NCBI GenBank assembly: GCA_934085595.1
Contig: CAKOHK010000001.1
Location: 145,705 to 209,704 of the forward strand
Origin: an uncultured Bacilli bacterium
GTDB lineage: Bacteria > Bacillota_I > Bacilli_A > RF39 > UBA660
Direction: 5' to 3'
DNA: 64,000 nt
Of the stretch, positions 13,366-49,868 are shown one piece after another. The notes under the pieces are model-generated. The model had not been told where the DNA came from. It did no database searches and was given only the letters and a program-made list of their open reading frames with translations. Every line of letters starts with the position of its first letter. Position 1 is the stretch's first letter. Position numbers and translations under genes: made by a program.

Positions 13366-14562
13366 TTACTTTTTAAGAACTAATCTTGATACTATTTCTT
13401 TATTTATTTCACTTTCAAACTTTTCACATCTAGCATATTCTTCAAGATCCATAGTAGAAATTAAAGTAAACTTTAGTTTACTCATTATTTTTTTATAATA
13501 ATCTTGAGGTAACTTTACTTTCATATTATATTCAGCATTTGGAAAATCTTTTTTAGCCGCTTCTAATAACTCAGTTATACGCATCAAATCTTCTTCATTT
13601 TTTCCTTTTTTATTTAACAGCTCTTCAATCTCTTTATAACGCTCATTACATTCTTTTCTGAAAATATTAATTTCTTCTTCAGCACTATTATAATTGATAA
13701 GTTCAGAAATATTAGCTTTACGATCAAATACATCACGTAATATATCTTCTAATTTAGTGGAACGTACATAGACATAAGGTTTATATCCAGTATTTCTATA
13801 TAAAGCATCAGACAATTCTCTCATATTATTTCTATTAAATGTTACTTTATATTTTTGAACATTGTTTCCTTGCACTCTTACATATGTATCATAGCTTTGA
13901 TTAGTAAAGCCTAAATATTTTTCATAGTCTTCTTTACTTATCTCATCTACTTTTTCAAAACTTATAGTTTCCATAACAGATTCATATAGTTTTGAAACAT
14001 CTAAAAGACTAGCTGCTTCTTCTCTTTGATTATATAACTCTTTTATTTTATAAGCTTCCCTAAGTTTCTTATCAAAATCAAATTTATTTTTTTTACTTTC
14101 TAACACTTTAATTCTTTCTTTAATTTCTTCATTTATTAAAGAAACTAGATCTTCTTCTCCATCATATTTTAAAAGTTCAATAAGACTTAATAGTTTTAAA
14201 TATTCACTATCAATCTTTCTATCAAGAGGGTACATTTGATCAGCAAAGTATAAATCATCTCTATGACATTTAACCTCATCTTCATAGCCAAGTAATCTAC
14301 CAATAATTATATAAAGTCTTGAACAGTGAACTAATTCATAACAAGTACCCAACATATCACCATTATTAGAAAGCAAATTCTTTTGATCAAACTTTGTATA
14401 TTCAAAATCTATATCATCCCAGTCATGTATATCTTTACCTAATGAACCAGTATAATAAAAATTACCTTCTTCTATCTTTAACATTAATTCTTTAAGTCTT
14501 TCTTCATCAATATCCACTTTATATTTATAAAGCATTCCATCTTTTTCTTCAATATATTTCAT
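13366..14562 (-). CDS. Tandem-array paralog 4 (398 aa)
   Basis: MKYIEEKDGMLYKYKVDIDEERLKEL ... VSRLVLKK. Full two-domain architecture. Confidence 0.6.
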   Translation of the reverse strand: MKYIEEKDGMLYKYKVDIDEERLKELMLKIEEGNFYYTGSLGKDIHDWDDIDFEYTKFDQKNLLSNNGDMLGTCYELVHCSRLYIIIGRLLGYEDEVKCHRDDLYFADQMYPLDRKIDSEYLKLLSLIELLKYDGEEDLVSLINEEIKERIKVLESKKNKFDFDKKLREAYKIKELYNQREEAASLLDVSKLYESVMETISFEKVDEISKEDYEKYLGFTNQSYDTYVRVQGNNVQKYKVTFNRNNMRELSDALYRNTGYKPYVYVRSTKLEDILRDVFDRKANISELINYNSAEEEINIFRKECNERYKEIEELLNKKGKNEEDLMRITELLEAAKKDFPNAEYNMKVKLPQDYYKKIMSKLKFTLISTMDLEEYARCEKFESEINKEIVSRLVLKK

Positions 14563-14587
14563 TTTAAAACCTCCCTTAAATATAAAA

Positions 14588-15709
14588 TTATTTACAAAGT
14601 ACTAACTTAGATGCTACTTCTTCACTTATTCCACTTTCAAACTCTTCTACTTTCTTATATGTTTCAATATCCATAGAAGAAACATTTTCATAATTAAGTT
14701 CACATAATATCTTTTCATAATATCCATATGTTGGAACTATACTCATATTATATTCTGCATAAGGAAAACTATTTCTAACTTCTTCTGTCACATTAATAAG
14801 ATCATCAACACTATTAGAATCTAAAGTGCCTATCTTTTTGGACTGTTCCATGCACTCTCTTCTATATATATTTATTTTTTCTTTATCAGGTTCGTAACTC
14901 AATAATGAAGTTATATTAGTTTTACCATTAATAAACTCAATTAATAGTTTCTCAAGTTCTGTACTTTCAAACTTACCAGAAGCATCCTTATAACGAGTAT
15001 CCATCTGCATAAGACGAAGTAAATAAACAAGACGATTCATATCAAAACATACTTTATTTTTATTAATATATTTTCCATCTTTTACCAAGAATGAATTATT
15101 ATCACATTTACATAGTTCCCTATATTTAGTATAATCTTTCAAACTTATTTCATCTATTTTTTCATAAGTTATTGTATTCATAATATCACTATAAAACCTA
15201 GTAATATCAGGAAGACTAGCTGCTTTTTCTCTTTGATTATATAGTTCTTTTAATATATATAGTCTAGTAAGTCTACCATTAAAATCATATTTAGATAAAC
15301 CACTATAAAGATTCTCTTTTCTCTTTTCTATTTCTTTATCTATTAAAGAAACCAAATCCACTTCCCCACTATAACTTTCAAGTTCATAAAGAGCATACAT
15401 CCTATCATACTCATCACAGTTACTTTTAGAAATTACATCATACTCTAATAATCTATTAGCAAGCTTATATAAATTAGAATAAAGAACTAATTCATAAGAT
15501 AACCCTTTTTCTCTACTAATACTATCTTCATCAAAATCTATATATGAAGTAAAATCTAAATCTTTATATGTAAGTGTTCCTTCTTCTACATCATGACTAT
15601 AATAAAAATTACCATCTTCTATCTTTAATATTAATTCTTTAAGTCTTTCTTCATCTATATCCACTTTATATTTATAAATCATTCCATCTTTTTCTTCAAT
15701 ATATATCAT
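14588..15709 (-). CDS. Tandem-array paralog 5 (373 aa)
   Basis: MIYIEEKDGMIYKYKVDIDEERLKEL ... ASKLVLCK. Confidence 0.6.
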   Translation of the reverse strand: MIYIEEKDGMIYKYKVDIDEERLKELILKIEDGNFYYSHDVEEGTLTYKDLDFTSYIDFDEDSISREKGLSYELVLYSNLYKLANRLLEYDVISKSNCDEYDRMYALYELESYSGEVDLVSLIDKEIEKRKENLYSGLSKYDFNGRLTRLYILKELYNQREKAASLPDITRFYSDIMNTITYEKIDEISLKDYTKYRELCKCDNNSFLVKDGKYINKNKVCFDMNRLVYLLRLMQMDTRYKDASGKFESTELEKLLIEFINGKTNITSLLSYEPDKEKINIYRRECMEQSKKIGTLDSNSVDDLINVTEEVRNSFPYAEYNMSIVPTYGYYEKILCELNYENVSSMDIETYKKVEEFESGISEEVASKLVLCK

Positions 15710-15735
15710 TTCAAAACCTCCTTTAAATACTTATA

Positions 15736-16902
15736 CTATTTACCAAGCACTAATTTAGATGCTGCTTCTTTATTTACTTCACTATCAAACTCTTGAGCTT
15801 TGTTATATATTTCACTATCTAGTGAAGGAATAAAAGTATATCTAAGTTCCTTAATTATTTCTTCATAATATGAATCAGTTGAATCTATGCTCATATTATA
15901 TTCAGCATATGGAAACTCATTTCTAAGTTTTTCCATTAGCTCAATCTCACCATCAATATTTTCTTCACTAAGTAAACCAATCTTTCTATAGCGTTCAGCA
16001 CATTTCTTTTTAAAAATATTTGCTTGTTCTTCTTCACTATTATAATTAATTAATGAAGAAATATCTCCTCCTTCATCAAGTATATTAACTAATATACGTT
16101 CTAAATTAGTTGGTACTAATCTTCCATCAAGAGCTTTAAATCTTGTATTATCTTCAATACTTTCTAATATATTTCTCATTCTCTCTTCATCAAATGAAAC
16201 TAAATATTTTCTAGCGTTTTCATTTTCAGTTTTACTAATAATTCTTGAGTTATAGTTAGATAAAACTAAATAAGCCATATAATCTTCTTTTAGAATCTCA
16301 TCTATTCTTTCAAAACTTATAGTGCTCATAACAGCATAAACAAATCTTCTAGCGTCCACAACGTCAGATGCCACTTTTCTTTGTTTATATAGCTCCTTTA
16401 TCTTATAAAGTTCTCCGCACTTTCCAGCATAATCAAACTTAGATGGTTCATTTCCGAGTAAACTTTCTCTTTCCTTAATTTCCTCATCTATTAAAGAAAC
16501 CAAATCCTTTTCACCATTATAATTTAAGAGTTCAAAAAGCCCAGAAGTCATTATATAATCTCTAATATCATCTTCATCACTAAATGGCTCCACGTAATAT
16601 TCTTCAATATCTTCAATATCTTCTTCCATACCAAGTAGTTTATTAACAATCTTATATAAATTTGAATAATAAACAAGTTCATATCTAGAACTAAATAAAC
16701 CGTCACTAAAAATCCAATTTATACTATCAAATCTTGTATAATCAAAATCTAATTCATCAAACTCTAACTTATCTTCATCTAGCGAATTAGAATATTTAAA
16801 GTTACACCCTTTCATCTCATTAAATATTTTTCTAAGTCTTTCTTCATCTATATCTACTTTATACTTATAAATCATTCCATCTTTTTCTTCTAAATATATC
16901 AT
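15736..16902 (-). CDS. Tandem-array paralog 6 (388 aa)
   Basis: MIYLEEKDGMIYKYKVDIDEERLRKI ... ASKLVLGK. GGAGG lies 12 nt after the stop of the upstream metallophosphoesterase gene. Confidence 0.6.
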   Translation of the reverse strand: MIYLEEKDGMIYKYKVDIDEERLRKIFNEMKGCNFKYSNSLDEDKLEFDELDFDYTRFDSINWIFSDGLFSSRYELVYYSNLYKIVNKLLGMEEDIEDIEEYYVEPFSDEDDIRDYIMTSGLFELLNYNGEKDLVSLIDEEIKERESLLGNEPSKFDYAGKCGELYKIKELYKQRKVASDVVDARRFVYAVMSTISFERIDEILKEDYMAYLVLSNYNSRIISKTENENARKYLVSFDEERMRNILESIEDNTRFKALDGRLVPTNLERILVNILDEGGDISSLINYNSEEEQANIFKKKCAERYRKIGLLSEENIDGEIELMEKLRNEFPYAEYNMSIDSTDSYYEEIIKELRYTFIPSLDSEIYNKAQEFDSEVNKEAASKLVLGK

Positions 16903-16914
16903 TTCAAAACCTCC

Positions 16915-18021
16915 CTATTTGATACCGTATCTTTTACTAAACTTATCTATCATAGATAAACTTCTACTATCTCCTACTTCTTCAATAATCTCTTCTTCTA
17001 TAACTTCTTGTGTTATTTCTTCACACACACTACTTTCTTCTTCTTTAAACTGTACATATCTTTTAAACTTATTTTCCGGACTACACACTATATGTGTCAT
17101 AATACTACTCTCTCCAAGAGATATAACCTTATGATCATTATTTAACCATAGTTCCTTTACATTTACAAGTGATATAGTATTATTTCCAGTATTAATAGTT
17201 ATATCTAAAAAACAAGGACACATTTCATTATTAATCATAATATCACTTAAAGTAGGAACTTTAATATATAAACTATTAGCGTGCTCTCTTATCTTAAATC
17301 TGTGTTCATGTCCACTAAGTACTATTCCACAAGCACTTTCTATATCAAGTTTAGTATTATTTTTATATGTTTTACCTAAGTCATGTCTCATAAATATATT
17401 AATCTTAGATAAAACAACTTTAGAAAGACCATACCCAGTAAACACCATATCATGCCTTCTAGAATTAATCATTTCCCCAATATCTATATTAAACTTCTCA
17501 TAAAAACTCATATCATGATTTCCACCAATCATAAAATTAATAATATTTTTATCAAACGGATATTTCTTAATCGTACTATCAATCATATCTATAGGATCAC
17601 TATAATTAACTTTATATATTGACGAAGGCATAAATCCTTCAAATATATCACCACTATTAAATATAATATTTATTCCATTCTTCTTAGCATAATCATATAC
17701 TATTTCCATATATCTATTATCTGAATATTTACTCTCTCTATGTTCATCACTAACAGCTATTATTCTATATATTCTATTAGTACTTTGCATAGGATTTCCA
17801 ACTATAAATATATCTTTATCTTCATTATTAAAAACACTTTTAATTCCATAAGTAATATTACCATTATCATGATAAAATCTATCTAAATTAATACCATAAC
17901 ATTTAAGTCTATTAAGTTTAATATATAACTGTTTATTACTAATTCCAAGTGTGCTAGCCATCTCATTAGCACTCTTCCCGTTTTTAATCATCTCTATTAT
18001 TTTAGCATTGTCTTCATCCAT
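16915..18021 (-). CDS. Helix-turn-helix N-terminal domain fused to a calcineurin-like metallophosphoesterase
   Basis: 368 aa. N-terminal GKSANEMASTLGISNKQLYIKLNRLK looks like an HTH. MPE motifs appear in canonical order: SDEH, GDIFEG, GGNHD, RHD, SGHEHR. Confidence 0.65.
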   Translation of the reverse strand: MDEDNAKIIEMIKNGKSANEMASTLGISNKQLYIKLNRLKCYGINLDRFYHDNGNITYGIKSVFNNEDKDIFIVGNPMQSTNRIYRIIAVSDEHRESKYSDNRYMEIVYDYAKKNGINIIFNSGDIFEGFMPSSIYKVNYSDPIDMIDSTIKKYPFDKNIINFMIGGNHDMSFYEKFNIDIGEMINSRRHDMVFTGYGLSKVVLSKINIFMRHDLGKTYKNNTKLDIESACGIVLSGHEHRFKIREHANSLYIKVPTLSDIMINNEMCPCFLDITINTGNNTISLVNVKELWLNNDHKVISLGESSIMTHIVCSPENKFKRYVQFKEEESSVCEEITQEVIEEEIIEEVGDSRSLSMIDKFSKRYGIK

Positions 18022-33967: not shown

Positions 33968-35257
33968 CTAATGGCTAGTAGGCACAATTTTATCTTTACC
34001 ACCCATATAAGGTCTTAATACTTCTGGTACAGTAATACTTCCATCTTCATTATAATTATTTTCAATAACAGCAATTAACCCTCTAGGACTAGCAACAACA
34101 GTATTATTTAGAGTATGTACAAAATAAGTACCATCTTCACCCTTAGTTCTAATACCAAGTCTACGAGCTTGAGCATCACCAAGAGTACTACAGCTACCAA
34201 CTTCAAAATACTTTTGTTGTCTTGGACTCCAAGCCTCTATATCACAAGATTTAACTTTCAAATCAGCAAGATCACCACTACAGCACTCAAGTTGTCTAAC
34301 TGGAACATTAAGATTTCTAAATATTTCTACTGTATATCTCCACATTTTTTCATAAAAATCCATAGACTCACTAGGTTTACATAAAACTATCATTTCTTGT
34401 TTTTCAAATTGATGAACTCTATAAAGTCCTCTTTCTTCAAGTCCATGACTTCCACCCTCTTTTCTAAAACAAGGACTATAAGAAGTCATAGTAATTGGAA
34501 GTTCACTTTCATTAATTATTCTATCTTTAAATCTACCAATCATAGAATGTTCACTTGTACCAATTAAATATAAATCTTCATTTTCTATTTTATACATCAT
34601 AGCTTCCATTTCAGGAAAACTCATAACACCTTCAACTACACTTGCATGAATCATAAAAGGTGGAATAGCAAATGTAAATCCTTTATCAATCATATAATCA
34701 CGAGCATAAGCAAGCATTGCTTCATGAAGTCTAGCAGCATCTCCAAGTAAATAATAAAAACCTTGACCACTAGTTTTACCAGCACTATCTTTATCAAGTC
34801 CATTTATAGATTCAAGTATATCAGCATGATAAGGTATAGTATAAGAAGGAACAGTTGCTTCTCCAAATCTTTGAACCTCAACATTCTCACTATCATCTTT
34901 TCCGATAGGTACACTCTCATCTATTATATTAGGAATAACCATCATTTTTTCTCTAATTAATTTTTCAAGTTCAACTTCCCTATTACCGCATTCTTCAATT
35001 TCACGAGATATCTCTTGAACTCTCTTTTTAGCTTCTTCTATCTTATCAGTTTCTTTGTTTTTAACATACTCTCCTATAGAAGCACTAACTTTATTTTTTT
35101 CACTTCTTAAATTATCAGCCTTAAACTTAGCAAGTCTATATTCTTCATCAAGATTATACACTTCATCCACAATAGGAAGTTTTTCATCTTGGAACTTTTT
35201 CTTAATATTTTCTTTAACTAAATCTCTATTTTCTCTTATTAATTTAATATCTATCAT
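33968..35257 (-). CDS. serS: Serine--tRNA ligase
   Basis: 429 aa with an N-terminal coiled coil. Class II motifs: YSPCFRKEGGSHGLEERGLYRVHQFEKQE. Confidence 0.85.
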   Translation of the reverse strand: MIDIKLIRENRDLVKENIKKKFQDEKLPIVDEVYNLDEEYRLAKFKADNLRSEKNKVSASIGEYVKNKETDKIEEAKKRVQEISREIEECGNREVELEKLIREKMMVIPNIIDESVPIGKDDSENVEVQRFGEATVPSYTIPYHADILESINGLDKDSAGKTSGQGFYYLLGDAARLHEAMLAYARDYMIDKGFTFAIPPFMIHASVVEGVMSFPEMEAMMYKIENEDLYLIGTSEHSMIGRFKDRIINESELPITMTSYSPCFRKEGGSHGLEERGLYRVHQFEKQEMIVLCKPSESMDFYEKMWRYTVEIFRNLNVPVRQLECCSGDLADLKVKSCDIEAWSPRQQKYFEVGSCSTLGDAQARRLGIRTKGEDGTYFVHTLNNTVVASPRGLIAVIENNYNEDGSITVPEVLRPYMGGKDKIVPTSH

Positions 35258-39804: not shown

Positions 39805-40155
39805 TTAATTACGAGGTTTAAATAAAAGTGTAACAATAAAAGCACATACAATAGCAGTAGTAAGCCCAGCTCCTGCATTATCAAATAATCCTTTAATAAG
39901 CCCTAGAAATCCAGATGCTTTATATCCAGCACTAGCACCAGTTACTAAAAGATGTCCAAAGTTAACTATCGGAACAGTTGCTCCAGCACAGCAAAGTCCT
40001 ATTATTTTATCATATATTCCAAATCCAGAAAGAGCACATCCAAATATAACTAAAATTGTATTCATATGTCCAGAAGTTAAATTAGTTTTTTCAAGAATAT
40101 ACTGTGAAATAGCACAAAGCAAACCACAAAATAGAAAAGCATAAAAATATGTCAT
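39805..40155 (-). CDS. spoVAE: Stage V sporulation protein AE (SpoVAEb-like)
   Basis: 116-aa membrane protein. Third gene of the spoVAC-AD-AE arrangement. Confidence 0.65.
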   Translation of the reverse strand: MTYFYAFLFCGLLCAISQYILEKTNLTSGHMNTILVIFGCALSGFGIYDKIIGLCCAGATVPIVNFGHLLVTGASAGYKASGFLGLIKGLFDNAGAGLTTAIVCAFIVTLLFKPRN

Positions 40156-41120
40156 AGAACCTCCAAACTAACAGCGTGACTAACACTAGGTATACTAAGA
40201 GATAAATTACAGCTTGTAGTATTATGAAGTGACCCAGTAGCCACTATTAATATTTTCTTATATTCTTTATTCTTTAATATATAATCAAACAAAACTAAAG
40301 GAAGACACGCAGGCCCACTAGCCCCAGCATAAATACTCTTAGAAGAATAATATATACTCCCCGCATCTATAACATTATTAAGACGCGCCCCATAACTTCT
40401 ATAGTAATATTCTTTCATAACTTCTACACCATATTTACCAAGATCGCCAGTTAATATAAGATCATAATATTCACTTTTTCTTTTACTACTTTTCAAGTGT
40501 TCATAAATAACCTTAGCACATGAAGGAGCCATCGCACTACCCATATCATTCGCATCCTTATGATTAGTTACGCACACTTTTCCAATACTAGCACTCTCAA
40601 CTCTAATATTACTTTTTTTACTGCTCAAAAGAACACTAATCGCACCACTTGCTGTCGCACTATTACTCATTTTTCTAATCGCACCATATTCAAGCGGATA
40701 CCTAAACTGTTTCTCACTCGCAAGATAATGAGAAGAAACACTAATAATAGCTTTATCTCTAGTATTATCAATAAACTTACTACCAATAATTAACCCCTCG
40801 CAAAAAGAAGCACAAGCACTATATATATTAAGAGATGGAATATCAAATCTCGAAGATGCAAAATTAGAAGCAAATAACTGATTTAATAAATCACTATTAA
40901 TCATAAGACTAATATTCTTACTAAGTAATTTATTCTTCTTAAGTATCCCATTAATACACATATATTGGTACTCGCTCTCAGCTTCCTCTACGCTTCTCTT
41001 TCCATTATAATAATCATTCTTAAATACATCACAGTTATCTTTAACTATAGGATTCTTATAGCCAGAAAACACACAAGAAAACTTATCATTAATATAAACT
41101 TTATCAAAATAATATATCAT
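40152..41120 (-). CDS. spoVAD: Stage V sporulation protein AD (thiolase/KAS-III-like fold)
   Basis: 322 aa. Translationally coupled between the AC-like and AE-like genes. Confidence 0.75.
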   Translation of the reverse strand: MIYYFDKVYINDKFSCVFSGYKNPIVKDNCDVFKNDYYNGKRSVEEAESEYQYMCINGILKKNKLLSKNISLMINSDLLNQLFASNFASSRFDIPSLNIYSACASFCEGLIIGSKFIDNTRDKAIISVSSHYLASEKQFRYPLEYGAIRKMSNSATASGAISVLLSSKKSNIRVESASIGKVCVTNHKDANDMGSAMAPSCAKVIYEHLKSSKRKSEYYDLILTGDLGKYGVEVMKEYYYRSYGARLNNVIDAGSIYYSSKSIYAGASGPACLPLVLFDYILKNKEYKKILIVATGSLHNTTSCNLSLSIPSVSHAVSLEVL

Positions 41121-41629: not shown

Positions 41630-43630
41630 CTATTTTATTTCAAATGCAAAGCACGAACTTCCATTACCTGTAATATATGTTACATTAGATTTAAGATATA
41701 ATGTAGGCTGAAAGCCAGGAAAAGCACTATTTGTATCTTGAGGCTGAACTTCGCCATTAGCTGACACAGCTATTGAATTATGGAATATATTAAAGAAAGT
41801 AGGCATAGGTGAAATAGTTAAATTATGAGAATTAACATATAACCAATTTGTATTCCTACAAATACTAGCTCTATAATCTGTATTACAAGTATTTAAATTT
41901 GAACTACATGATGAATTATTATAATCACACGCTTTTTTTGTACTATCATTATAGCAACTACTACTTGCATACATATAATCACTTATGTATATTAACCCTA
42001 CTTTTCCATCCCAAGTTTGACTATTTCCACTATCTACACTTGCGCCTCTCTCTTGGATATATACTTCTGGTGCTGTTTTAAGAAGTCCACCATTTGATGC
42101 ATTATAATCTATGTTACCTATATACCATTTTGTACTACTTATCTGATTTCTTGCACTGTTTGTTAATCCATTATTAGCATATGTACCAGTTCTATTAAAA
42201 TATTCTCCACTATTTAAAGTTCTCATTAATGACGATTTTGTCCAATTGTTTGTACCTGCAGAATCCCAAGCAGCAGCTCCAATTTGATTTCTCACTATTT
42301 TCACTCTATACTGTTTTGTATAGCCATTACCATTAGGAGTTAATACTTCAAAGACTCCAATAATTCTCCACACACCATTATCCATATTTATTCCGGTTGT
42401 CCACATTCCTGTTTCTCCATTAAATATAATATAATTGTTAGGATTTGCCCCTTGATATCTATATTCTGTAGTAGCATAATTTTGATTACCTGTTGCTGCA
42501 TGTGATATTTTAGTTAAACCTAAAGTTTGATAATTACTTATAAGACAATTTGCTAAAGTTTTACCAGAGCATAAAGATTCAATAGGATTATTCCATCTAG
42601 CAGTTAAAACAGTATTTTTAGTTGCTATAGTATTGCTTGTTACTAGATTTCCACTTTCATCATACCATCCGCCAAAATTATATCCGCACTTGCTTGTACT
42701 ACACAATGTTCCATATGTTTCACCTTGCATAACATTCTTTTTTGAGCATTCACTTCCACCATTAGTATCATATACAAGAGTATACATTTTCAAACTCCAC
42801 TTAGCATAAAGAGTAATATCGTTTTTTACTATATCAGTACTTTCAATTTTAGTTTCATATGTTTTACTAGTATACCATCCATCAAAAGTATAATTGTCTT
42901 TACTAGGAGTACATAAATCGCCATAAGCTTGCCCTTTTTGGATACTATCACTCGCGCATCCTCTACCACCATTATTATCAAAAGTTATCTTTTTCATATC
43001 TTTTTCAAATGATACATAACAGTCCATATCATCACTAACAGATAATAATGTTAAAGTATTATTATCATTTAACATACCACATGTATTAGAAGAATACTTA
43101 TATCCAAGAGATGGAATATATTCAAAACTAACTCTATCTAAATATCCAGCATACACTTTATTTTTATTAACTTTTCCCATACTTTCATCTGTACTAAATA
43201 AACTAACTATATACATATTTGTAAATCTCCATGGATCTTTATATGTACCTTTACCTGTAATTTTAGTTCCTTTTTTTACATATTCAGTAACTCTTATATT
43301 ACTATCATCACTATTACTATTATCAGATATCTTTTTACCACTAATCTCCCAGTATGAAAAAGATGCTGTAAGATAACTTAAATTATTTATTTTTGATGTA
43401 TTAACTTCATAATTATTTATAAGTCCTCCAGTAATAAACTTATTATCATAACTTATATTTTTATTATTATATATAAATGGAACTCTATCTTCTTTTATTA
43501 AATATATTTCATTCTTAACATTATTATTTATATAATTATTAGAAACACTTATAGTATCATTAAAAGAATATGCTTTTACATTTATTATCGTAAATAAAAC
43601 TAATAAAGCACTTATAATTATCTTCTTCAT
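41630..43630 (-). CDS. Secreted protein with two Listeria-Bacteroides (Flg_new) repeats and the shared C-terminal domain (family member P2)
   Basis: 666 aa. Signal peptide ...INVKAYSFNDT (TasA-like AxFND). Two ...YTFDGWY...LYAKW / YNFGGWY...LTARW repeats. C-terminal domain carries LTKISHAATGNQNYATTEYRYQG, WRIIGVFEVLTP, NQISSTKWYIGN and YISDYMYASSSCY. Confidence 0.6.
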   Translation of the reverse strand: MKKIIISALLVLFTIINVKAYSFNDTISVSNNYINNNVKNEIYLIKEDRVPFIYNNKNISYDNKFITGGLINNYEVNTSKINNLSYLTASFSYWEISGKKISDNSNSDDSNIRVTEYVKKGTKITGKGTYKDPWRFTNMYIVSLFSTDESMGKVNKNKVYAGYLDRVSFEYIPSLGYKYSSNTCGMLNDNNTLTLLSVSDDMDCYVSFEKDMKKITFDNNGGRGCASDSIQKGQAYGDLCTPSKDNYTFDGWYTSKTYETKIESTDIVKNDITLYAKWSLKMYTLVYDTNGGSECSKKNVMQGETYGTLCSTSKCGYNFGGWYDESGNLVTSNTIATKNTVLTARWNNPIESLCSGKTLANCLISNYQTLGLTKISHAATGNQNYATTEYRYQGANPNNYIIFNGETGMWTTGINMDNGVWRIIGVFEVLTPNGNGYTKQYRVKIVRNQIGAAAWDSAGTNNWTKSSLMRTLNSGEYFNRTGTYANNGLTNSARNQISSTKWYIGNIDYNASNGGLLKTAPEVYIQERGASVDSGNSQTWDGKVGLIYISDYMYASSSCYNDSTKKACDYNNSSCSSNLNTCNTDYRASICRNTNWLYVNSHNLTISPMPTFFNIFHNSIAVSANGEVQPQDTNSAFPGFQPTLYLKSNVTYITGNGSSCFAFEIK

Positions 43631-45198: not shown

Positions 45199-46680
45199 TT
45201 ATTTAATTATAAATGGATTAGTGCTTTTTCCGTTTCCAGAAACAAATTTTACATCAGCATTAAGATACACAGTAGGTCTTATATTGACATCACTAGCAGA
45301 ATCTACACCATTAATATATAAAGTACCTTCACTCTGTGCAATAAGTACAGCGTGTTGGTCTATAGATTCAGGTGACAACAACCAATAAACGGTATTATTC
45401 ATCAGCCAATTAGTACTAACGCACTCATCATCTTTATAATTTCCAGAGTCTGCCCCATCATAACATACATTACTAGCATACATATAATCACTAGGATATA
45501 AAAGTCCTACTTTGCCATCCCATGTTTGACTATTTCCATCCCATACATCAGTACTTCTTTCGCGTGTATATATGCTTTCTGCTGTTCCATAACCACCAGA
45601 AGAATAAACCTGATTACCAAGGTACCATTTCGTAGTACTTATTTGACTTCTAGCTTCATCAGTTAATCCAGTAGTTGTATAATCGCACAAAGGATTAGTA
45701 TCATCATATGGATGAAAATATATTGAACACCCAAGAGGAGAATATCCATATTGTCTATTAAAATATGCTCCTTCATTTAACAAAGTCATAAGTGATGCTT
45801 TTGTCCAATCATTAACAGAGCCAGAAGCAGAACTAAAATCCCAAGCTGCTTGTCCAATAGAATCTCTAACTATTTTAACTTTGTTTTCCTTTTTATAAGT
45901 TCCATCACTCTGAGGTGTTTCTACTTCAAATAATCCAACTATTCTCCACAGTCCCTCTTCTTTATTAAATGTAATATAATTGCTAGGATCTTTCCCTTGA
46001 AATCTGTATTCAGTAGTACTATATTCCTGATTTCCTGTAGCTTCATGCGTTATAGATATTAAATCAAGTTTTTTATAATTATCTATTAAAGTTTGAGCAA
46101 GTGTAGCTGTTTGAATACTTTCTGCGACACCAAGAACACCATAAAACTTCTTTCCTTGATTATAGTTTTGCGCTTTATCAGTATAATTAACAAAACGAAT
46201 TGAAACAGTGTAAGTATGAGTTTCTCCAGGTAATATTTTTTGTGATTCTTTATATGGATACAACACTTCACCCTTATTAGCTATAGCCTCAGTAGTAACT
46301 TGTGGCACAATAACTGTAGAACCATTAACACAGCTTCCATTATCAACACCACTACTACCACAAACGCATCTAATCATAAGTTCATCTTTTTGAATCCCAT
46401 TATAAAGCTTCTGCCATCCAAGACTATAATAAGTTTCTTCATTTCCTTTGTTTTCAACAGTTATAGTTTTCGTAGTTGTCCATCCAGGCTCTATATTTTC
46501 TGCAATTATTTGATTACCATCAGTATATTTAAGTTCAAGCTTAGTAGTACCAACATCTATAGTTTCAGCCACATCATTACCACTAACAGTCTGACTAAAA
46601 TACGCATAAGTAAGCCCAACCGTTAATAAAAATGCAACTGTAAGTACACTTCCATAAATAAACTTTTTATCTTTCATCAT
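45199..46680 (-). CDS. Secreted TasA/camelysin-like protein with the shared C-terminal domain (family member P3)
   Basis: 493 aa. Signal peptide ...VGLTYAYFSQT (AYFSD-type SipW-cognate motif), then TTKLELKY...NIEPGW...ITVENKG as in TasA. C-terminal domain carries ITHEATGNQEYSTTEYRFQG, WRIVGLFEVETP, SQISTTKWYLGN and YPSDYMYASNVCY. Confidence 0.65.
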   Translation of the reverse strand: MMKDKKFIYGSVLTVAFLLTVGLTYAYFSQTVSGNDVAETIDVGTTKLELKYTDGNQIIAENIEPGWTTTKTITVENKGNEETYYSLGWQKLYNGIQKDELMIRCVCGSSGVDNGSCVNGSTVIVPQVTTEAIANKGEVLYPYKESQKILPGETHTYTVSIRFVNYTDKAQNYNQGKKFYGVLGVAESIQTATLAQTLIDNYKKLDLISITHEATGNQEYSTTEYRFQGKDPSNYITFNKEEGLWRIVGLFEVETPQSDGTYKKENKVKIVRDSIGQAAWDFSSASGSVNDWTKASLMTLLNEGAYFNRQYGYSPLGCSIYFHPYDDTNPLCDYTTTGLTDEARSQISTTKWYLGNQVYSSGGYGTAESIYTRERSTDVWDGNSQTWDGKVGLLYPSDYMYASNVCYDGADSGNYKDDECVSTNWLMNNTVYWLLSPESIDQHAVLIAQSEGTLYINGVDSASDVNIRPTVYLNADVKFVSGNGKSTNPFIIK

Positions 46681-46974: not shown

Positions 46975-47574
46975 ATGTCAAGATATACTGGACCATCATT
47001 CAAGAAATCTAGAAGATATGGTTTTTCATTAACTGAAACTGGTAAAGAATTAAGACGTAAACCTACTGCTCCTGGTATCCACGGAACTAGTAGAAAGAAA
47101 CTTAGTGATTACGGTGTTCAATTACAAGAAAAACAAAAAGTTAAATTCATGTACGGACTATCTGAAAAGCAATTCAGAAAAACATTTGATGCTGCTGGTA
47201 AGATGAGTGGTATTCATGGTTATAACTTATTAATACTTCTTGAAAGCAGACTAGATAACTTAGTTTATCGTATGGGTCTTGCTAAAACAAGAAGAGCTGC
47301 TAGACAACTTGTAAATCACGGTCATATCACTGTAAATGGAAAGAAAGTTGATATTCCATCATACAGAGTTAAAGTTGGAGATACTATCGCTGTTAGAGAA
47401 AGTTCTTTAGAACATCCAGTTATTACTGAATGCTTAAATATGGATGTTACATTACCAGCTTACGTTTCATTTGATAAATCAAAGAAATGTGGAAGCTATG
47501 TAAGATATCCTGAAAGAGAAGAATTAAATAGCGAAATTAACGAAGCTTTAATAGTTGAATACTACAATAGATAG
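46975..47574 (+). CDS. rpsD: 30S ribosomal protein S4
   Basis: 199 aa. [19 protein letters not shown]... with a C-terminal S4 domain. GGAGG upstream. Confidence 0.95.
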
Positions 47575-47581
47575 TATATTA

Positions 47582-47608
47582 AAAGAGTTCACATCGAACT
47601 CTTTTTTT
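47582..47608. terminator. Bidirectional rho-independent terminator between rpsD (+) and alaS (-)
   Basis: aagagttc-acatc-gaactctt hairpin with a T-run on plus and an A/T-rich flank on minus. Confidence 0.6.
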
Positions 47609-47615
47609 ATATAAA

Positions 47616-49361
47616 TTATTCTAATATAGCTTTAATTCTTCTAACCCCAGCACTACTAGCTTCCTCTTTAACTATTTTAAAATGCCCAAGTTCACTTGTA
47701 TTCTTAACATGAGGACCACCACATAATTCTTTTGAAACATCACCAATAGAATATACAGTTACCATATCAGGATACTTCTCAATAAACATACACTCAGCCC
47801 CACTATTAATCGCATCTTTCTTACTCATCTCTTCTACTTTTACATCAAGACCTTCTTTAATCCATTCATTAACTAAATCCTCAGTCTTTTGCTTCTCTTC
47901 ATCACTAAGTTTATGATCACAAGAAAAATCAAATCTCATTCTCTCTTCAGTAATATTACTTCCCTTTTGATGTACATCTTTATTTACTACAACTTTTAAA
48001 GCAGCATTTAATAAATGAGTCGCAGTATGATATTTAGTTTCCTTTTCACCATTACCACCAAGACCACCTTTAAACTGTCCACTACTAGCAGTTCTACTAA
48101 GTTCCTGATGAGCCTTATACTTTTCCTTAAAACCATCTTCATCAACTTTAATACCTTTTTCTAAAGCAAGTTCTATAGTAAGTTCAATAGGAAATCCATA
48201 AGTATCATATAATCTAAATGCACTACTAGCATCTATATCTTTTCCATCTTTAACTGTTTTTTCAAACTCTCTAAGTCCTTTTTCTAATGTTTTATTAAAC
48301 TTCTCTTTTTCATTCTTTAAAACTTCTAAAACAACATTTTTATTTTCTTTAAGTTCACTATAATATTTTTCATATTTACTAATTATTAAAGATGCTACTT
48401 TGCTTTCCCAATCACTATTTATATCTATATTTAATTTCTTAGCATGTCTTATGCTTCTTCTTATAAGTCTTCTAAGTATATACCCTTGTCCTACATTACT
48501 AGGTTTAATTCCTGCTGGATCTGCACTTATAAATACACTAGTTCTAATATGATCTGCTATTATACGCATACTTTTTTCATTACCTTCATATGGCAAAGAA
48601 GTAATTTCACATATTAAATCAATAACATCTTTCCATATACTAGATGCATAATTATCATTTACCCCTTCAAGTACACTTGTAACCCTTTCAAGACCCATAC
48701 CCGTGTCTACATTCTTATGTGCAAGTGGAACTATGCTACCATCTTCCTTATGTTCATACTGCATAAACACATCATTCCATATCTCAACCCATCTATTATC
48801 TTCAGGATCAAATACTTCTGGTACTTCTTCATCACTTCTGAAATAAAACATTTCTGTATCAGGCCCACATAACCCTACCATCTCAAGATTAGGCCACCAG
48901 TTATCCTCTTTAGTCCTAGCTATTCTCTCTTCCTTAATACCTAAACTTTTCCAAAGTTCAATAGCCTCAGTATCCTCATCAGCTATTTCATTCCCAGCAA
49001 ATACAGTAACCGCAAGTTTTTCCACTGGTATATTAAGTACTTTAGTTAAAAACTCAAAACTCCACTCAATAGCTTCCTTCTTAAAATAATCACCAAGACT
49101 CCAGTTACCAAGCATTTCAAAGAAAGTATGATGATATGAATCCCCTACTTCATCTAAATCATTAGTTCTAATACACTTTTGATAATCACAAAGTCTTTTC
49201 CCATAAGGATGCTCTTTCCCACTTAAATATGGTACTAATGGCTGCATACCAGCTGTATTAAAAAGAACAGTATTATCATTCTCTGGTACAACCGGAGCAC
49301 TAGGTATTTGCTTATGTCCCTTACTAACAAAAAAATCAATAAATAAATCTCTTACATTCAT
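47616..49361 (-). CDS. alaS: Alanine--tRNA ligase, unusually short form (581 aa) with aminoacylation and editing motifs but no C-Ala domain
   Basis: N-terminal FNTAGMQP, HHTFFEMLGNWSLGDYFK and WPNLEMVGLCGPDTEMFYF. Editing-domain HTATHLL (HxxxH) and CGGPH. Preceded by a T-box with a GCU specifier. Confidence 0.75.
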   Translation of the reverse strand: MNVRDLFIDFFVSKGHKQIPSAPVVPENDNTVLFNTAGMQPLVPYLSGKEHPYGKRLCDYQKCIRTNDLDEVGDSYHHTFFEMLGNWSLGDYFKKEAIEWSFEFLTKVLNIPVEKLAVTVFAGNEIADEDTEAIELWKSLGIKEERIARTKEDNWWPNLEMVGLCGPDTEMFYFRSDEEVPEVFDPEDNRWVEIWNDVFMQYEHKEDGSIVPLAHKNVDTGMGLERVTSVLEGVNDNYASSIWKDVIDLICEITSLPYEGNEKSMRIIADHIRTSVFISADPAGIKPSNVGQGYILRRLIRRSIRHAKKLNIDINSDWESKVASLIISKYEKYYSELKENKNVVLEVLKNEKEKFNKTLEKGLREFEKTVKDGKDIDASSAFRLYDTYGFPIELTIELALEKGIKVDEDGFKEKYKAHQELSRTASSGQFKGGLGGNGEKETKYHTATHLLNAALKVVVNKDVHQKGSNITEERMRFDFSCDHKLSDEEKQKTEDLVNEWIKEGLDVKVEEMSKKDAINSGAECMFIEKYPDMVTVYSIGDVSKELCGGPHVKNTSELGHFKIVKEEASSAGVRRIKAILE

Positions 49362-49364
49362 ATA

Positions 49365-49560
49365 TAACCTCCAAAATAAAAAGAACAGTACAAGGAGCCA
49401 ATATAGGCGGTACCATCCTTTAATTAACTTAATTATTATAACGCATTACCGTGATAGTTTTCTATCAAACAAAGAAAAGTAGCTTCAAATAACAATATTA
49501 TTAGTTCGCACCAACCACTAACTCTCTTAAAATATTTAAATATTCTAATAATCTTTCCCG
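49365..49560 (-). promoter_or_regulatory. T-box riboswitch leader (tRNA-Ala-responsive) upstream of alaS
   Basis: The minus-strand RNA contains AAUUAAAGGAUGGUACCGCC, close to the T-box consensus AAUUAGGGUGGNACCGCG, with a UGGU bulge to pair NCCA. Candidate specifier uugaaGCUacu lies at 49481-49483. A U-rich tract precedes the RBS. Confidence 0.6.
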
Positions 49561-49568
49561 ATGAACAT

Positions 49569-49597
49569 ATATTATCACATTTTTAATATCTATGCAA
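49569..49597 (-). promoter_or_regulatory. Promoter TTGCAT-17-TAATAT for the T-box/alaS transcript
   Basis: Minus strand has ttgcat (49592-49597) and taatat (49569-49574). Confidence 0.45.
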
Positions 49598-49868
49598 GTA
49601 CCCTATTTAATAACTATATACTTATAATATTTATCTATCATATCAAGATTATCTTTTCTCTTATCATTTAAATATTAATTAATTAACACAATACCACATT
49701 TGAAGGGTTCTATCTTTATCTTTTTAATTAAACCAATTCCACTTATGAAAGAAATCTAAACTGCCCGAACTAATAATTGAAACTACTATAGATATTATTA
49801 AAAATATAATAAATAATACTAAAGTTATAAATCTAGTATTTTCATATTTATTTCCTTAAATAATATTT

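Follow-up and report, generated by a model that had tools for sequence, protein, structure and literature searches.

Experimental papers on alanyl-tRNA synthetase (AlaRS) describe a conserved prototype "throughout biology" with four domains, of which C-Ala is the main tRNA-binding module, and list as exceptions the C. elegans mitochondrial AlaRS, the Tupanvirus mini-AlaRS and the split N. equitans enzyme (PMC10036535, PMC8887476). The Tupanvirus mini-AlaRS and the engineered A. aeolicus fragment N453 function without C-Ala and bind the acceptor stem only (PMC10036535). A 2023 preprint has defined a "small-AlaRS" of bacteria and archaea, drawn from candidate phyla radiation (CPR), DPANN and Asgard proteomes, which contains the catalytic, ATL and editing domains only and is without the cradle-loop barrel and C-Ala (bioRxiv 10.1101/2023.05.29.542759). 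With regard to control, characterised alaS T-box leaders carry a GCU specifier and a UGGU bulge, the pairing partner of the tRNA ACCA end, and they are known in canonical and Stem II-deleted forms (PMC4695836). Here we describe an alaS gene and its leader on the minus strand of a 64-kb stretch of contig CAKOHK010000001.1 (64,000 nt, from an uncultured Bacilli bacterium; referred to below as the window). The gene is real and is not new in kind: it encodes a small-AlaRS and lies under an ordinary alanine-sensing T-box.

The open reading frame (ORF), as listed with its translation, starts with ATG and specifies 581 amino acids, some 295 residues fewer than E. coli AlaRS. A first-pass annotation of the same DNA had described the product as an unusually short AlaRS that retains the aminoacylation core and the HxxxH/CxxxH editing motifs, has a shortened mid region and leaves no room for C-Ala, and it had named a frameshifted remainder immediately downstream as the finding that would overturn this description. 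We used E. coli AlaRS (876 codons; query from NC_000913) in tblastn searches of the window, and observed that its residues 8-440, covering the aminoacylation domain, were matched at 41% identity and its residues 564-698, covering the editing core, at 44%. Residues 441-563 (the beta-barrel) and 699-875 (the helical, coiled-coil linker and C-Ala) had zero matches in any frame of the 64 kb. Three canonical AlaRS of ~880 amino acids gave the same pattern, and none of the four queries detected a second alaS or a split remainder in the window beyond the 581-aa ORF. Multiple alignment with the same four proteins likewise showed two clean deletions, one spanning the region that separates the aminoacylation domain from the editing domain and the other everything C-terminal of the latter; by alignment and tblastn alike, the C-terminus of the 581-aa protein is the equivalent of E. 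coli AlaRS ~698. As these two approaches show two clean deletions and no remainder, the earlier description of the protein was correct, and the frameshift that it had allowed for is excluded. Since the C-Ala stretch is missing, the protein is also without the reported main module for tRNA-elbow binding and oligomerisation (PMC10036535, PMC8887476).

The protein consists of an aminoacylation domain, a linker of ~14 residues and an editing core, and its AlphaFold model, built on 49 family members, contains two confidently predicted domains with a mean predicted local distance difference test score (pLDDT) of 90.3. Pfam tRNA-synt_2c was found on residues 2-430, corresponding to profile positions 1-436 of 552 only; residues 3-423 gave a ~50% match to the A. 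aeolicus N453 fragment (3htz/1riq), and in Foldseek comparisons the N-terminal ~440 residues reached a target-normalised TM score (TMt) of 0.79-0.87 to the catalytic fragments of A. aeolicus, E. coli and human AlaRS. The linker stands where canonical AlaRS has a beta-barrel of ~120 residues, and its residues 425-432, with pLDDT <50, are the sole disordered stretch of the model. We take E. coli R69, D235 and G237 to be active-site residues, N303 and D400 to be the N/D pair that recognizes G3:U70, H564, H568, C666 and H670 to form the zinc/editing site, Q584 to be an editing-site residue, and R693 to be a tRNA determinant of the editing domain; both numbering registers were tried in mapping them onto the alignment. 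The equivalents of all eleven residues are conserved here and in the other aligned small forms, the equivalent of R693 being R574.

The editing core carries its zinc/editing motifs as H445xxxH449 and C547xxxH551, and all four residues are invariant across the 49 family members. Pfam tRNA_SAD was found on residues 534-576, residues 441-567 align to residues 5-136 of AlaX-S (1v4p), and the C-terminal ~150 residues superimpose on AlaX-S 1wnu with a TMt of 0.85 and a root-mean-square deviation of 1.8 A by Foldseek. The same part of the protein corresponds to positions 96-233 of the 234-position AlaXM profile, a stretch that excludes the N-terminal barrel of AlaX-M. Thus the C-terminal 143 residues share the fold and the HxxxH/CxxxH motifs of P. 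horikoshii AlaX-S, and the barrel, which is N-terminal in AlaX-M, is absent from both; yet the module is fused to a synthetase here and is free-standing, acting in trans, in AlaX-S. AlaX-S is reported to be specific for Ser, and by analogy the editing activity here might be limited to Ser-tRNA-Ala rather than extending also to Gly-tRNA-Ala.

In its catalogued features the protein is an intact, naturally short member of the small-AlaRS family, an architecture that had already been named. It has the catalytic, ATL and editing domains and is missing the cradle-loop barrel and C-Ala, and it scored 766.8 bits, above the curated cutoff (529), with NF002436 (PRK01584.1), the 595-position NCBIfam equivalog 'alanine--tRNA ligase', its residues 3-581 covering profile positions 6-593. 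The cutoff of TIGR00344 was also passed (616 vs 457 bits, in two stretches); despite that score the protein does not have the canonical five-domain layout, with barrel and C-Ala missing, and the presence of the editing core sets it apart from the viral mini-AlaRS of the Tupanvirus type. Its best 120 matches in a collection of 5.8 billion proteins were 80-99% identical and 581-583 aa long, with one exception of 599 aa; they came mainly from gut metagenomes, and the few named ones were called 'alanine--tRNA ligase' from metagenome-assembled genomes (MAGs) of 'Clostridium sp.' or 'Mollicutes bacterium'. In an exhaustive search of representatives at 50% identity, dozens of distinct clusters of 565-650 aa matched end to end at 42-64% identity and canonical proteins of 850-900 aa matched in two separate stretches; among the 143 near-full-length representatives nearest to the query, 71 were missing the barrel segment. 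The length that had seemed unusual is therefore so with respect to the textbook AlaRS, and typical within NF002436/PRK01584, where there are hundreds of relatives of the same length.

A scan of GTDB species genomes returned 80 loci, each covering essentially the whole query. The closest (68-82% identity) came from gut MAGs of uncultured Bacilli, 'Tenericutes' and Erysipelotrichaceae (hosts: human, rabbit, mouse and ruminants), and at 50-59% identity we found Clostridia (e.g. Clostridium sp. CAG:1219), Spirochaetes/Treponema, Lentisphaeria/Victivallis, Kiritimatiellae and Patescibacteria, together with DPANN archaea (Woese-, Pace- and Nanoarchaeota). The submitter labels Muribaculaceae, Methanosarcinales and Alphaproteobacteria on some loci may be binning errors. 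A Treponema-seeded search showed that a form of ~595 aa is annotated as AlaRS in the complete genomes of the cultured spirochaetes Treponema primitia ZAS-2, Gracilinema caldarium and Breznakiella homolactica. Borrelia burgdorferi may likewise have a protein of ~594 aa from this family as its sole AlaRS, a point to which we give no weight in the argument. A neighbour-joining tree of aminoacylation domains placed most small forms apart from the canonical ones; the tree is crude and midpoint-rooted and says nothing on monophyly or direction of transfer. Two kinds of variant were seen among the collected proteins. Three barrel-less, small-type AlaRS (P0123, 776 aa; P0124, 781 aa; P0179, 834 aa) have an insertion of ~190-240 residues inside the aminoacylation domain, which could be an intein or an extra domain. 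P0277 and P0282, both 441 aa and found on 9 and 3 contigs, respectively, are variants of the same small AlaRS within the 90% cluster of P0107, and could be aminoacylation-domain-only forms, frameshifts or assembly breaks.

The first-pass annotation had also proposed a T-box with a GCU specifier upstream of the gene, and this was borne out. The leader matched the full Rfam RF00230 model (positions 1-219; E 1.3e-12 locally and 8.6e-11 over the whole window) and no second T-box reached E<0.01 in the window. Its Stem I contains a specifier loop, in which an S-turn GAA, the codon and a purine read GAA-GCU-A, as well as the AG bulge and the distal loop that form the platform (49505..49527) docking the tRNA elbow. 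The conserved T-box sequence with its UGGN bulge is present as AAAGGAUGGUACCGCC at 49421-49406, and the UGGU bulge is complementary to the 3' ACCA end of tRNA. Model positions ~105-135, corresponding to canonical Stem II and the Stem IIA/B pseudoknot, are largely deleted, which puts the leader in the known deletion class of glyQS and C. acetobutylicum alaS (PMC4695836).

Folding of the leader predicted two mutually exclusive structures, which have the AAGGA and UGGUAC segments in common. One is a terminator hairpin followed by UUUUUAUUUU; the other is an antiterminator in which AAGGA/UCCUU and GCC/GGC helices enclose a UGGUACC bulge. At -14.6 vs -7.6 kcal/mol the terminator is 7 kcal/mol more stable, and the minimum-free-energy (MFE) fold predicted for the leader contains it. 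Since the T-box sequence (AAAGGAUGGUAC) itself serves as the 5' arm of this hairpin, the UGGU bulge to which the tRNA acceptor end binds is buried as well when the terminator forms. A translational T-box that sequesters the Shine-Dalgarno sequence was considered and rejected: the CUCC/GGAG pairing has only 4 bp across a 20-nt loop, vs the conserved 12-bp hairpin with its U tract. The C. acetobutylicum alaS leader (PMC4695836) shares with this one the GCU specifier, the UGGU bulge, a Stem I with AG bulge and distal loop, Stem III and a terminator/antiterminator pair, and likewise has no Stem II or pseudoknot. The two differ in that the T-box sequence forms the terminator 5' arm only in the leader described here, and in that the C. 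acetobutylicum leader controls a canonical AlaRS and the present one a small-AlaRS. Because the GCU codon, the UGGU bulge and the Stem II-less form all match known alaS leaders, we regard this leader as an ordinary alaS T-box of the deletion class.

In eight related loci (L001, L005-L008, L010, L013 and L015), too, an Ala-specifier T-box precedes the orthologue or the operon to which it belongs. The L001 orthologue is 84% identical and has a 73.9-bit T-box with the same GAA-GCU-A, in a gene neighbourhood that differs (rlmN, a PP2C phosphatase gene, a PASTA-kinase gene, rsgA and rpe), and L005-L007 (80-82% identity) have near-identical leaders. In L008, L010 and L013 the T-box lies ~550-570 nt upstream of alaS; the gap in L010 (2288-4743) holds a gene for a 171-aa P-loop (dNMP-kinase-like) protein, and the spacing in L008 and L013 is the same. 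In L015 (413-3580) a 103.7-bit T-box is followed by the P-loop gene, cmk and alaS. As the T-box precedes kinase genes in L010 and L015, nucleotide-kinase genes are apparently co-transcribed there under tRNA-Ala control. A T-box also lies upstream of alaS in L037, from a separate GC-rich Clostridia lineage, where the specifier is not confidently readable and GCC-G is possible. L026, from an uncultured Clostridia MAG of rabbit gut, encodes a full-length ornate large extremophilic (OLE) RNA (404-1009, 329 bits) ~2 kb upstream of its small alaS.

The leader elements recur among the relatives. In all eight related leaders GCU plus a purine lies directly against the closing helix of the specifier loop, AGGAUGGUACC is invariant in 9/9 leaders, and the terminator hairpin with its U run occurs in 8/8 relatives, where pairing is kept through one-sided changes. 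Among the five closest leaders the 3' arm of the terminator is variable (GUACUGUUC, GUACUAUUC, GUACUAUCC, GUAUCAUUC) and still pairs with the invariant T-box arm, and the inner helix covaries between GCC/GGC and GUC/GAC. Across the nine leaders 4 of the 6 pairs in the distal Stem I helix have changed in a compensatory way; this helix was the only one that RNAalifold recovered from the nine, since MAFFT misaligns the four divergent leaders.

From these observations we favour, at a probability of roughly 0.78, the interpretation that the gene is the functional, and probably the sole, alaS of an uncultured low-GC gut Bacilli bacterium, a T-box-controlled member of the small-AlaRS family. What we computed are the domain content, the conserved residues, the leader motifs and the two alternative folds; the enzymatic activities, the monomeric state, the tRNA dependence of read-through and the single-copy status are what we infer from them. 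The class II aminoacylation domain would activate alanine and select tRNA-Ala by the G3:U70 pair of its acceptor stem, and the AlaX-S-like zinc editing core, joined to it by the short linker, would hydrolyse Ser-tRNA-Ala. As the protein has neither the beta-barrel nor C-Ala, with its elbow-binding and dimerisation functions, it is most likely a monomer that touches the acceptor arm only. What makes such recognition plausible is that minihelix or microhelix RNA can be charged in the absence of C-Ala, as by the N453 fragment and the Tupanvirus mini-AlaRS (PMC10036535), and acceptor-stem binding of their kind is, by analogy, the likely tRNA-binding mode here. The analogy has its bounds: those two proteins are without an editing domain, whereas the present one keeps its editing core in cis, and it keeps the N/D recognition residues that are lost in the Tupanvirus AlaRS.

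The leader, for its part, would act by transcription attenuation, defaulting to the terminator fold. Uncharged tRNA-Ala is predicted to pair through its anticodon with GCU and through its free ACCA end with the UGGU bulge, and the bound tRNA would stabilise the weaker antiterminator and permit read-through into alaS. Since Stem I keeps its elbow-docking platform intact, the cognate tRNA should have a normal elbow, and the loss of C-Ala would therefore be no parallel to that associated with armless nematode mitochondrial tRNAs. That this Bacilli lineage relies on a barrel-less, C-Ala-less enzyme as its sole AlaRS together with a normal L-shaped tRNA-Ala seems to us an evenly balanced proposition. 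The Ala T-box may be ancestral, with the small gene having taken the place of a canonical alaS downstream of it.

Several observations weigh against this interpretation. The T-box scored 61 bits, under the Rfam gathering score of 93, a shortfall explained by the largely missing Stem II/IIA-B region; a default-threshold Rfam scan was consequently blind to it, and it was found in E-value mode alone. In L009, L011, L012, L014 and L016-L026 (56-77% identity) the 3 kb upstream yielded no T-box, so T-box regulation is not universal in the clade. tRNA-Ala genes, in which G3:U70 and A73 could be read, occurred neither in the window, which has Arg-TCT and Thr-CGT tRNA genes only, nor in 27 related loci. 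Finally, the searched literature contained no biochemical study of any small-AlaRS.

The patchy occurrence of the T-box among relatives is also what would be expected if the gene were an auxiliary AlaRS paralogue, induced when tRNA-Ala charging falls, with a canonical full-length alaS elsewhere doing the routine work. Spare synthetases for other amino acids are known to be under T-box control, as with thrZ and tyrZ in Bacillus. We nevertheless consider a spare copy unlikely: the length and sequence of the short form are conserved across many species and phyla, it is the form annotated as AlaRS in the complete spirochaete genomes, and NCBI curates the family as an alanine--tRNA ligase equivalog. 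Moreover, a review table of duplicated synthetases has no translational AlaRS duplicate (PMC9437257), and a T-box on the housekeeping alaS is the norm in Firmicutes (PMC4695836). The genuine Ala-specifier leader upstream argues for a working alaS rather than a fragment, as the first-pass annotation had maintained.

The same leader, being of a kind that senses tRNA-Ala, fits a role in translation, and with the conservation of the class II catalytic residues, the N/D pair for G3:U70 and the editing-domain arginine R574 it makes very improbable a further possibility, namely that the protein has lost tRNA charging for translation and has been recruited as a fused trans-editing factor or as a ligase of the amino-acid:carrier-protein type, as might be entertained in view of the AlaRS-like paralogues with non-translational roles that exist (PMC9437257). 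The shortfall of ~295 residues relative to E. coli AlaRS could by itself suggest that the gene is what truncation or a frameshift has left of a canonical alaS, or that the assembly is at fault. This fragment hypothesis is effectively refuted, and we give it almost no weight, as the two gaps are clean, domain-sized and common to the whole family, the match to the 595-position curated model runs end to end, relatives of identical length number in the hundreds, no frame of the window holds a remainder, and a terminator and the convergent rpsD lie beyond the stop codon. We thus return to the working small alaS under T-box control, the features of which are collected in Table 1.

Table 1. Features of the small alaS locus (window positions; the strand is given as - for minus, and as. 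for the hairpin between the convergent genes)
Feature	Position	Strand	Basis
Candidate promoter: TTGCAT, 17-nt spacer, extended -10 TGaTAATAT	49597-49569	-	sequence; inference only
T-box leader, Stem II/IIA-B deletion class	49390..49564	-	RF00230, full model, 61 bits
Stem I AG bulge AGAGA	49527-49523	-	alignment to Rfam consensus
Stem I distal loop GGUUGGUGCGAA	49516-49505	-	alignment to Rfam consensus
S-turn GAA, specifier GCU, purine A	49486-49480	-	RF00230 alignment, sequence
Specifier codon GCU (Ala)	49481..49483	-	S-turn GAA before, purine A after
T-box sequence AAUUAAAGGAUGGUACCGCC	49425-49406	-	sequence, RF00230 alignment
Intrinsic terminator: 12-bp hairpin (49421-49410 / 49391-49380) and U tract to 49373	49373..49421	-	folding
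Shine-Dalgarno GGAGG, 6 nt before ATG	49368..49372	-	sequence
Small-AlaRS coding sequence, 581 aa and stop codon	47616..49361	-	ORF list; NF002436 match
Aminoacylation domain (catalytic and tRNA-recognition/ATL), residues 1-424	48090..49361	-	Pfam, structure matches, residues
Flexible linker, residues 425-438, family motif FKGGL	48048..48089	-	AlphaFold pLDDT, alignment gap
AlaX-S-like editing core, residues 439-581	47619..48047	-	AlaXM profile, 1v4p, 1wnu, tRNA_SAD
Hairpin with flanking T/A runs between convergent alaS and rpsD	47581..47605	.	terminator scan

The gene had further been credited with its own promoter. The candidate in Table 1 is plausible and sensibly placed just upstream of the leader, but statistical support was lacking: the site failed the criteria of our promoter scan, which returned 16 sites in the real sequence vs 17.5 in shuffled sequence. 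Upstream of it, the ~260 nt between the DUF1653 gene and the putative promoter (window 49610-49868) are very AT-rich and non-coding, and no RNA family was recognised in them. At the other end, a 10-bp hairpin starts 10 nt past the alaS stop codon and is likely a bidirectional terminator that closes alaS, the convergent neighbour being rpsD for ribosomal protein S4 (46975-47574).

The window as a whole is AT-rich (~23-31% GC), with the majority of its genes on the minus strand, and it also encodes a penicillin-binding protein (PBP), MurB, RsmH, SerRS and a SpoVAD-like protein; the most economical reading of the host is a low-GC, cell-walled Firmicute of an uncultured gut Bacilli lineage. The serS gene (33968-35257, minus strand; TIGR00414, 412.7 bits) and alaS are the two aminoacyl-tRNA synthetase genes among the scanned ORFs of the window, and a recognisable T-box was seen on alaS alone. 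Just downstream of alaS and rpsD, also on the minus strand, lie genes for two probable surface proteins: a secreted one of 493 aa (45199-46680) with a camelysin/TasA-type N-terminal signal region (Peptidase_M73, weak match), and one of 666 aa (41630-43630) with Listeria-Bacteroides repeat domains. The SpoVAD-like protein (40152-41120, minus strand) scored 289.8 bits, below the subfamily cutoff of 402, and hints that this reduced gut Bacilli lineage may retain sporulation genes. Farther along the same strand, four consecutive ORFs of 368-398 aa (13366-18021) had no NCBIfam match at E<1e-5 and may constitute a paralogous gene array.

As described above, the protein is odd solely in comparison with the textbook AlaRS, since it is typical of a family that has been catalogued and named. 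It has the same catalytic, ATL and editing architecture as the small-AlaRS of the preprint; those came from CPR, DPANN and Asgard, whereas this one is from a gut Bacilli lineage, and the Firmicutes-type Ala T-box that it carries is not mentioned there. Within the searched literature the small-AlaRS family has been noted bioinformatically only, and its distribution shows that many free-living and host-associated prokaryotes dispense with C-Ala and the barrel. The Ala T-box adds indirect physiological evidence that ties the short enzyme to the charging status of tRNA-Ala in a Firmicute. For annotation, it follows that alaS genes of the small-AlaRS type, with 580-600 codons' worth of amino acids, are not to be flagged as truncated. 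The gene is also a tractable candidate for studying how charging and editing work without the barrel and C-Ala. If the short enzyme is indeed the sole AlaRS of its host and acts on a normal tRNA-Ala, recognition would depend on the acceptor stem only, by a probably monomeric enzyme that edits without a barrel, and the lineage would provide a natural cellular counter-example to the statement that AlaRS has one prototype.

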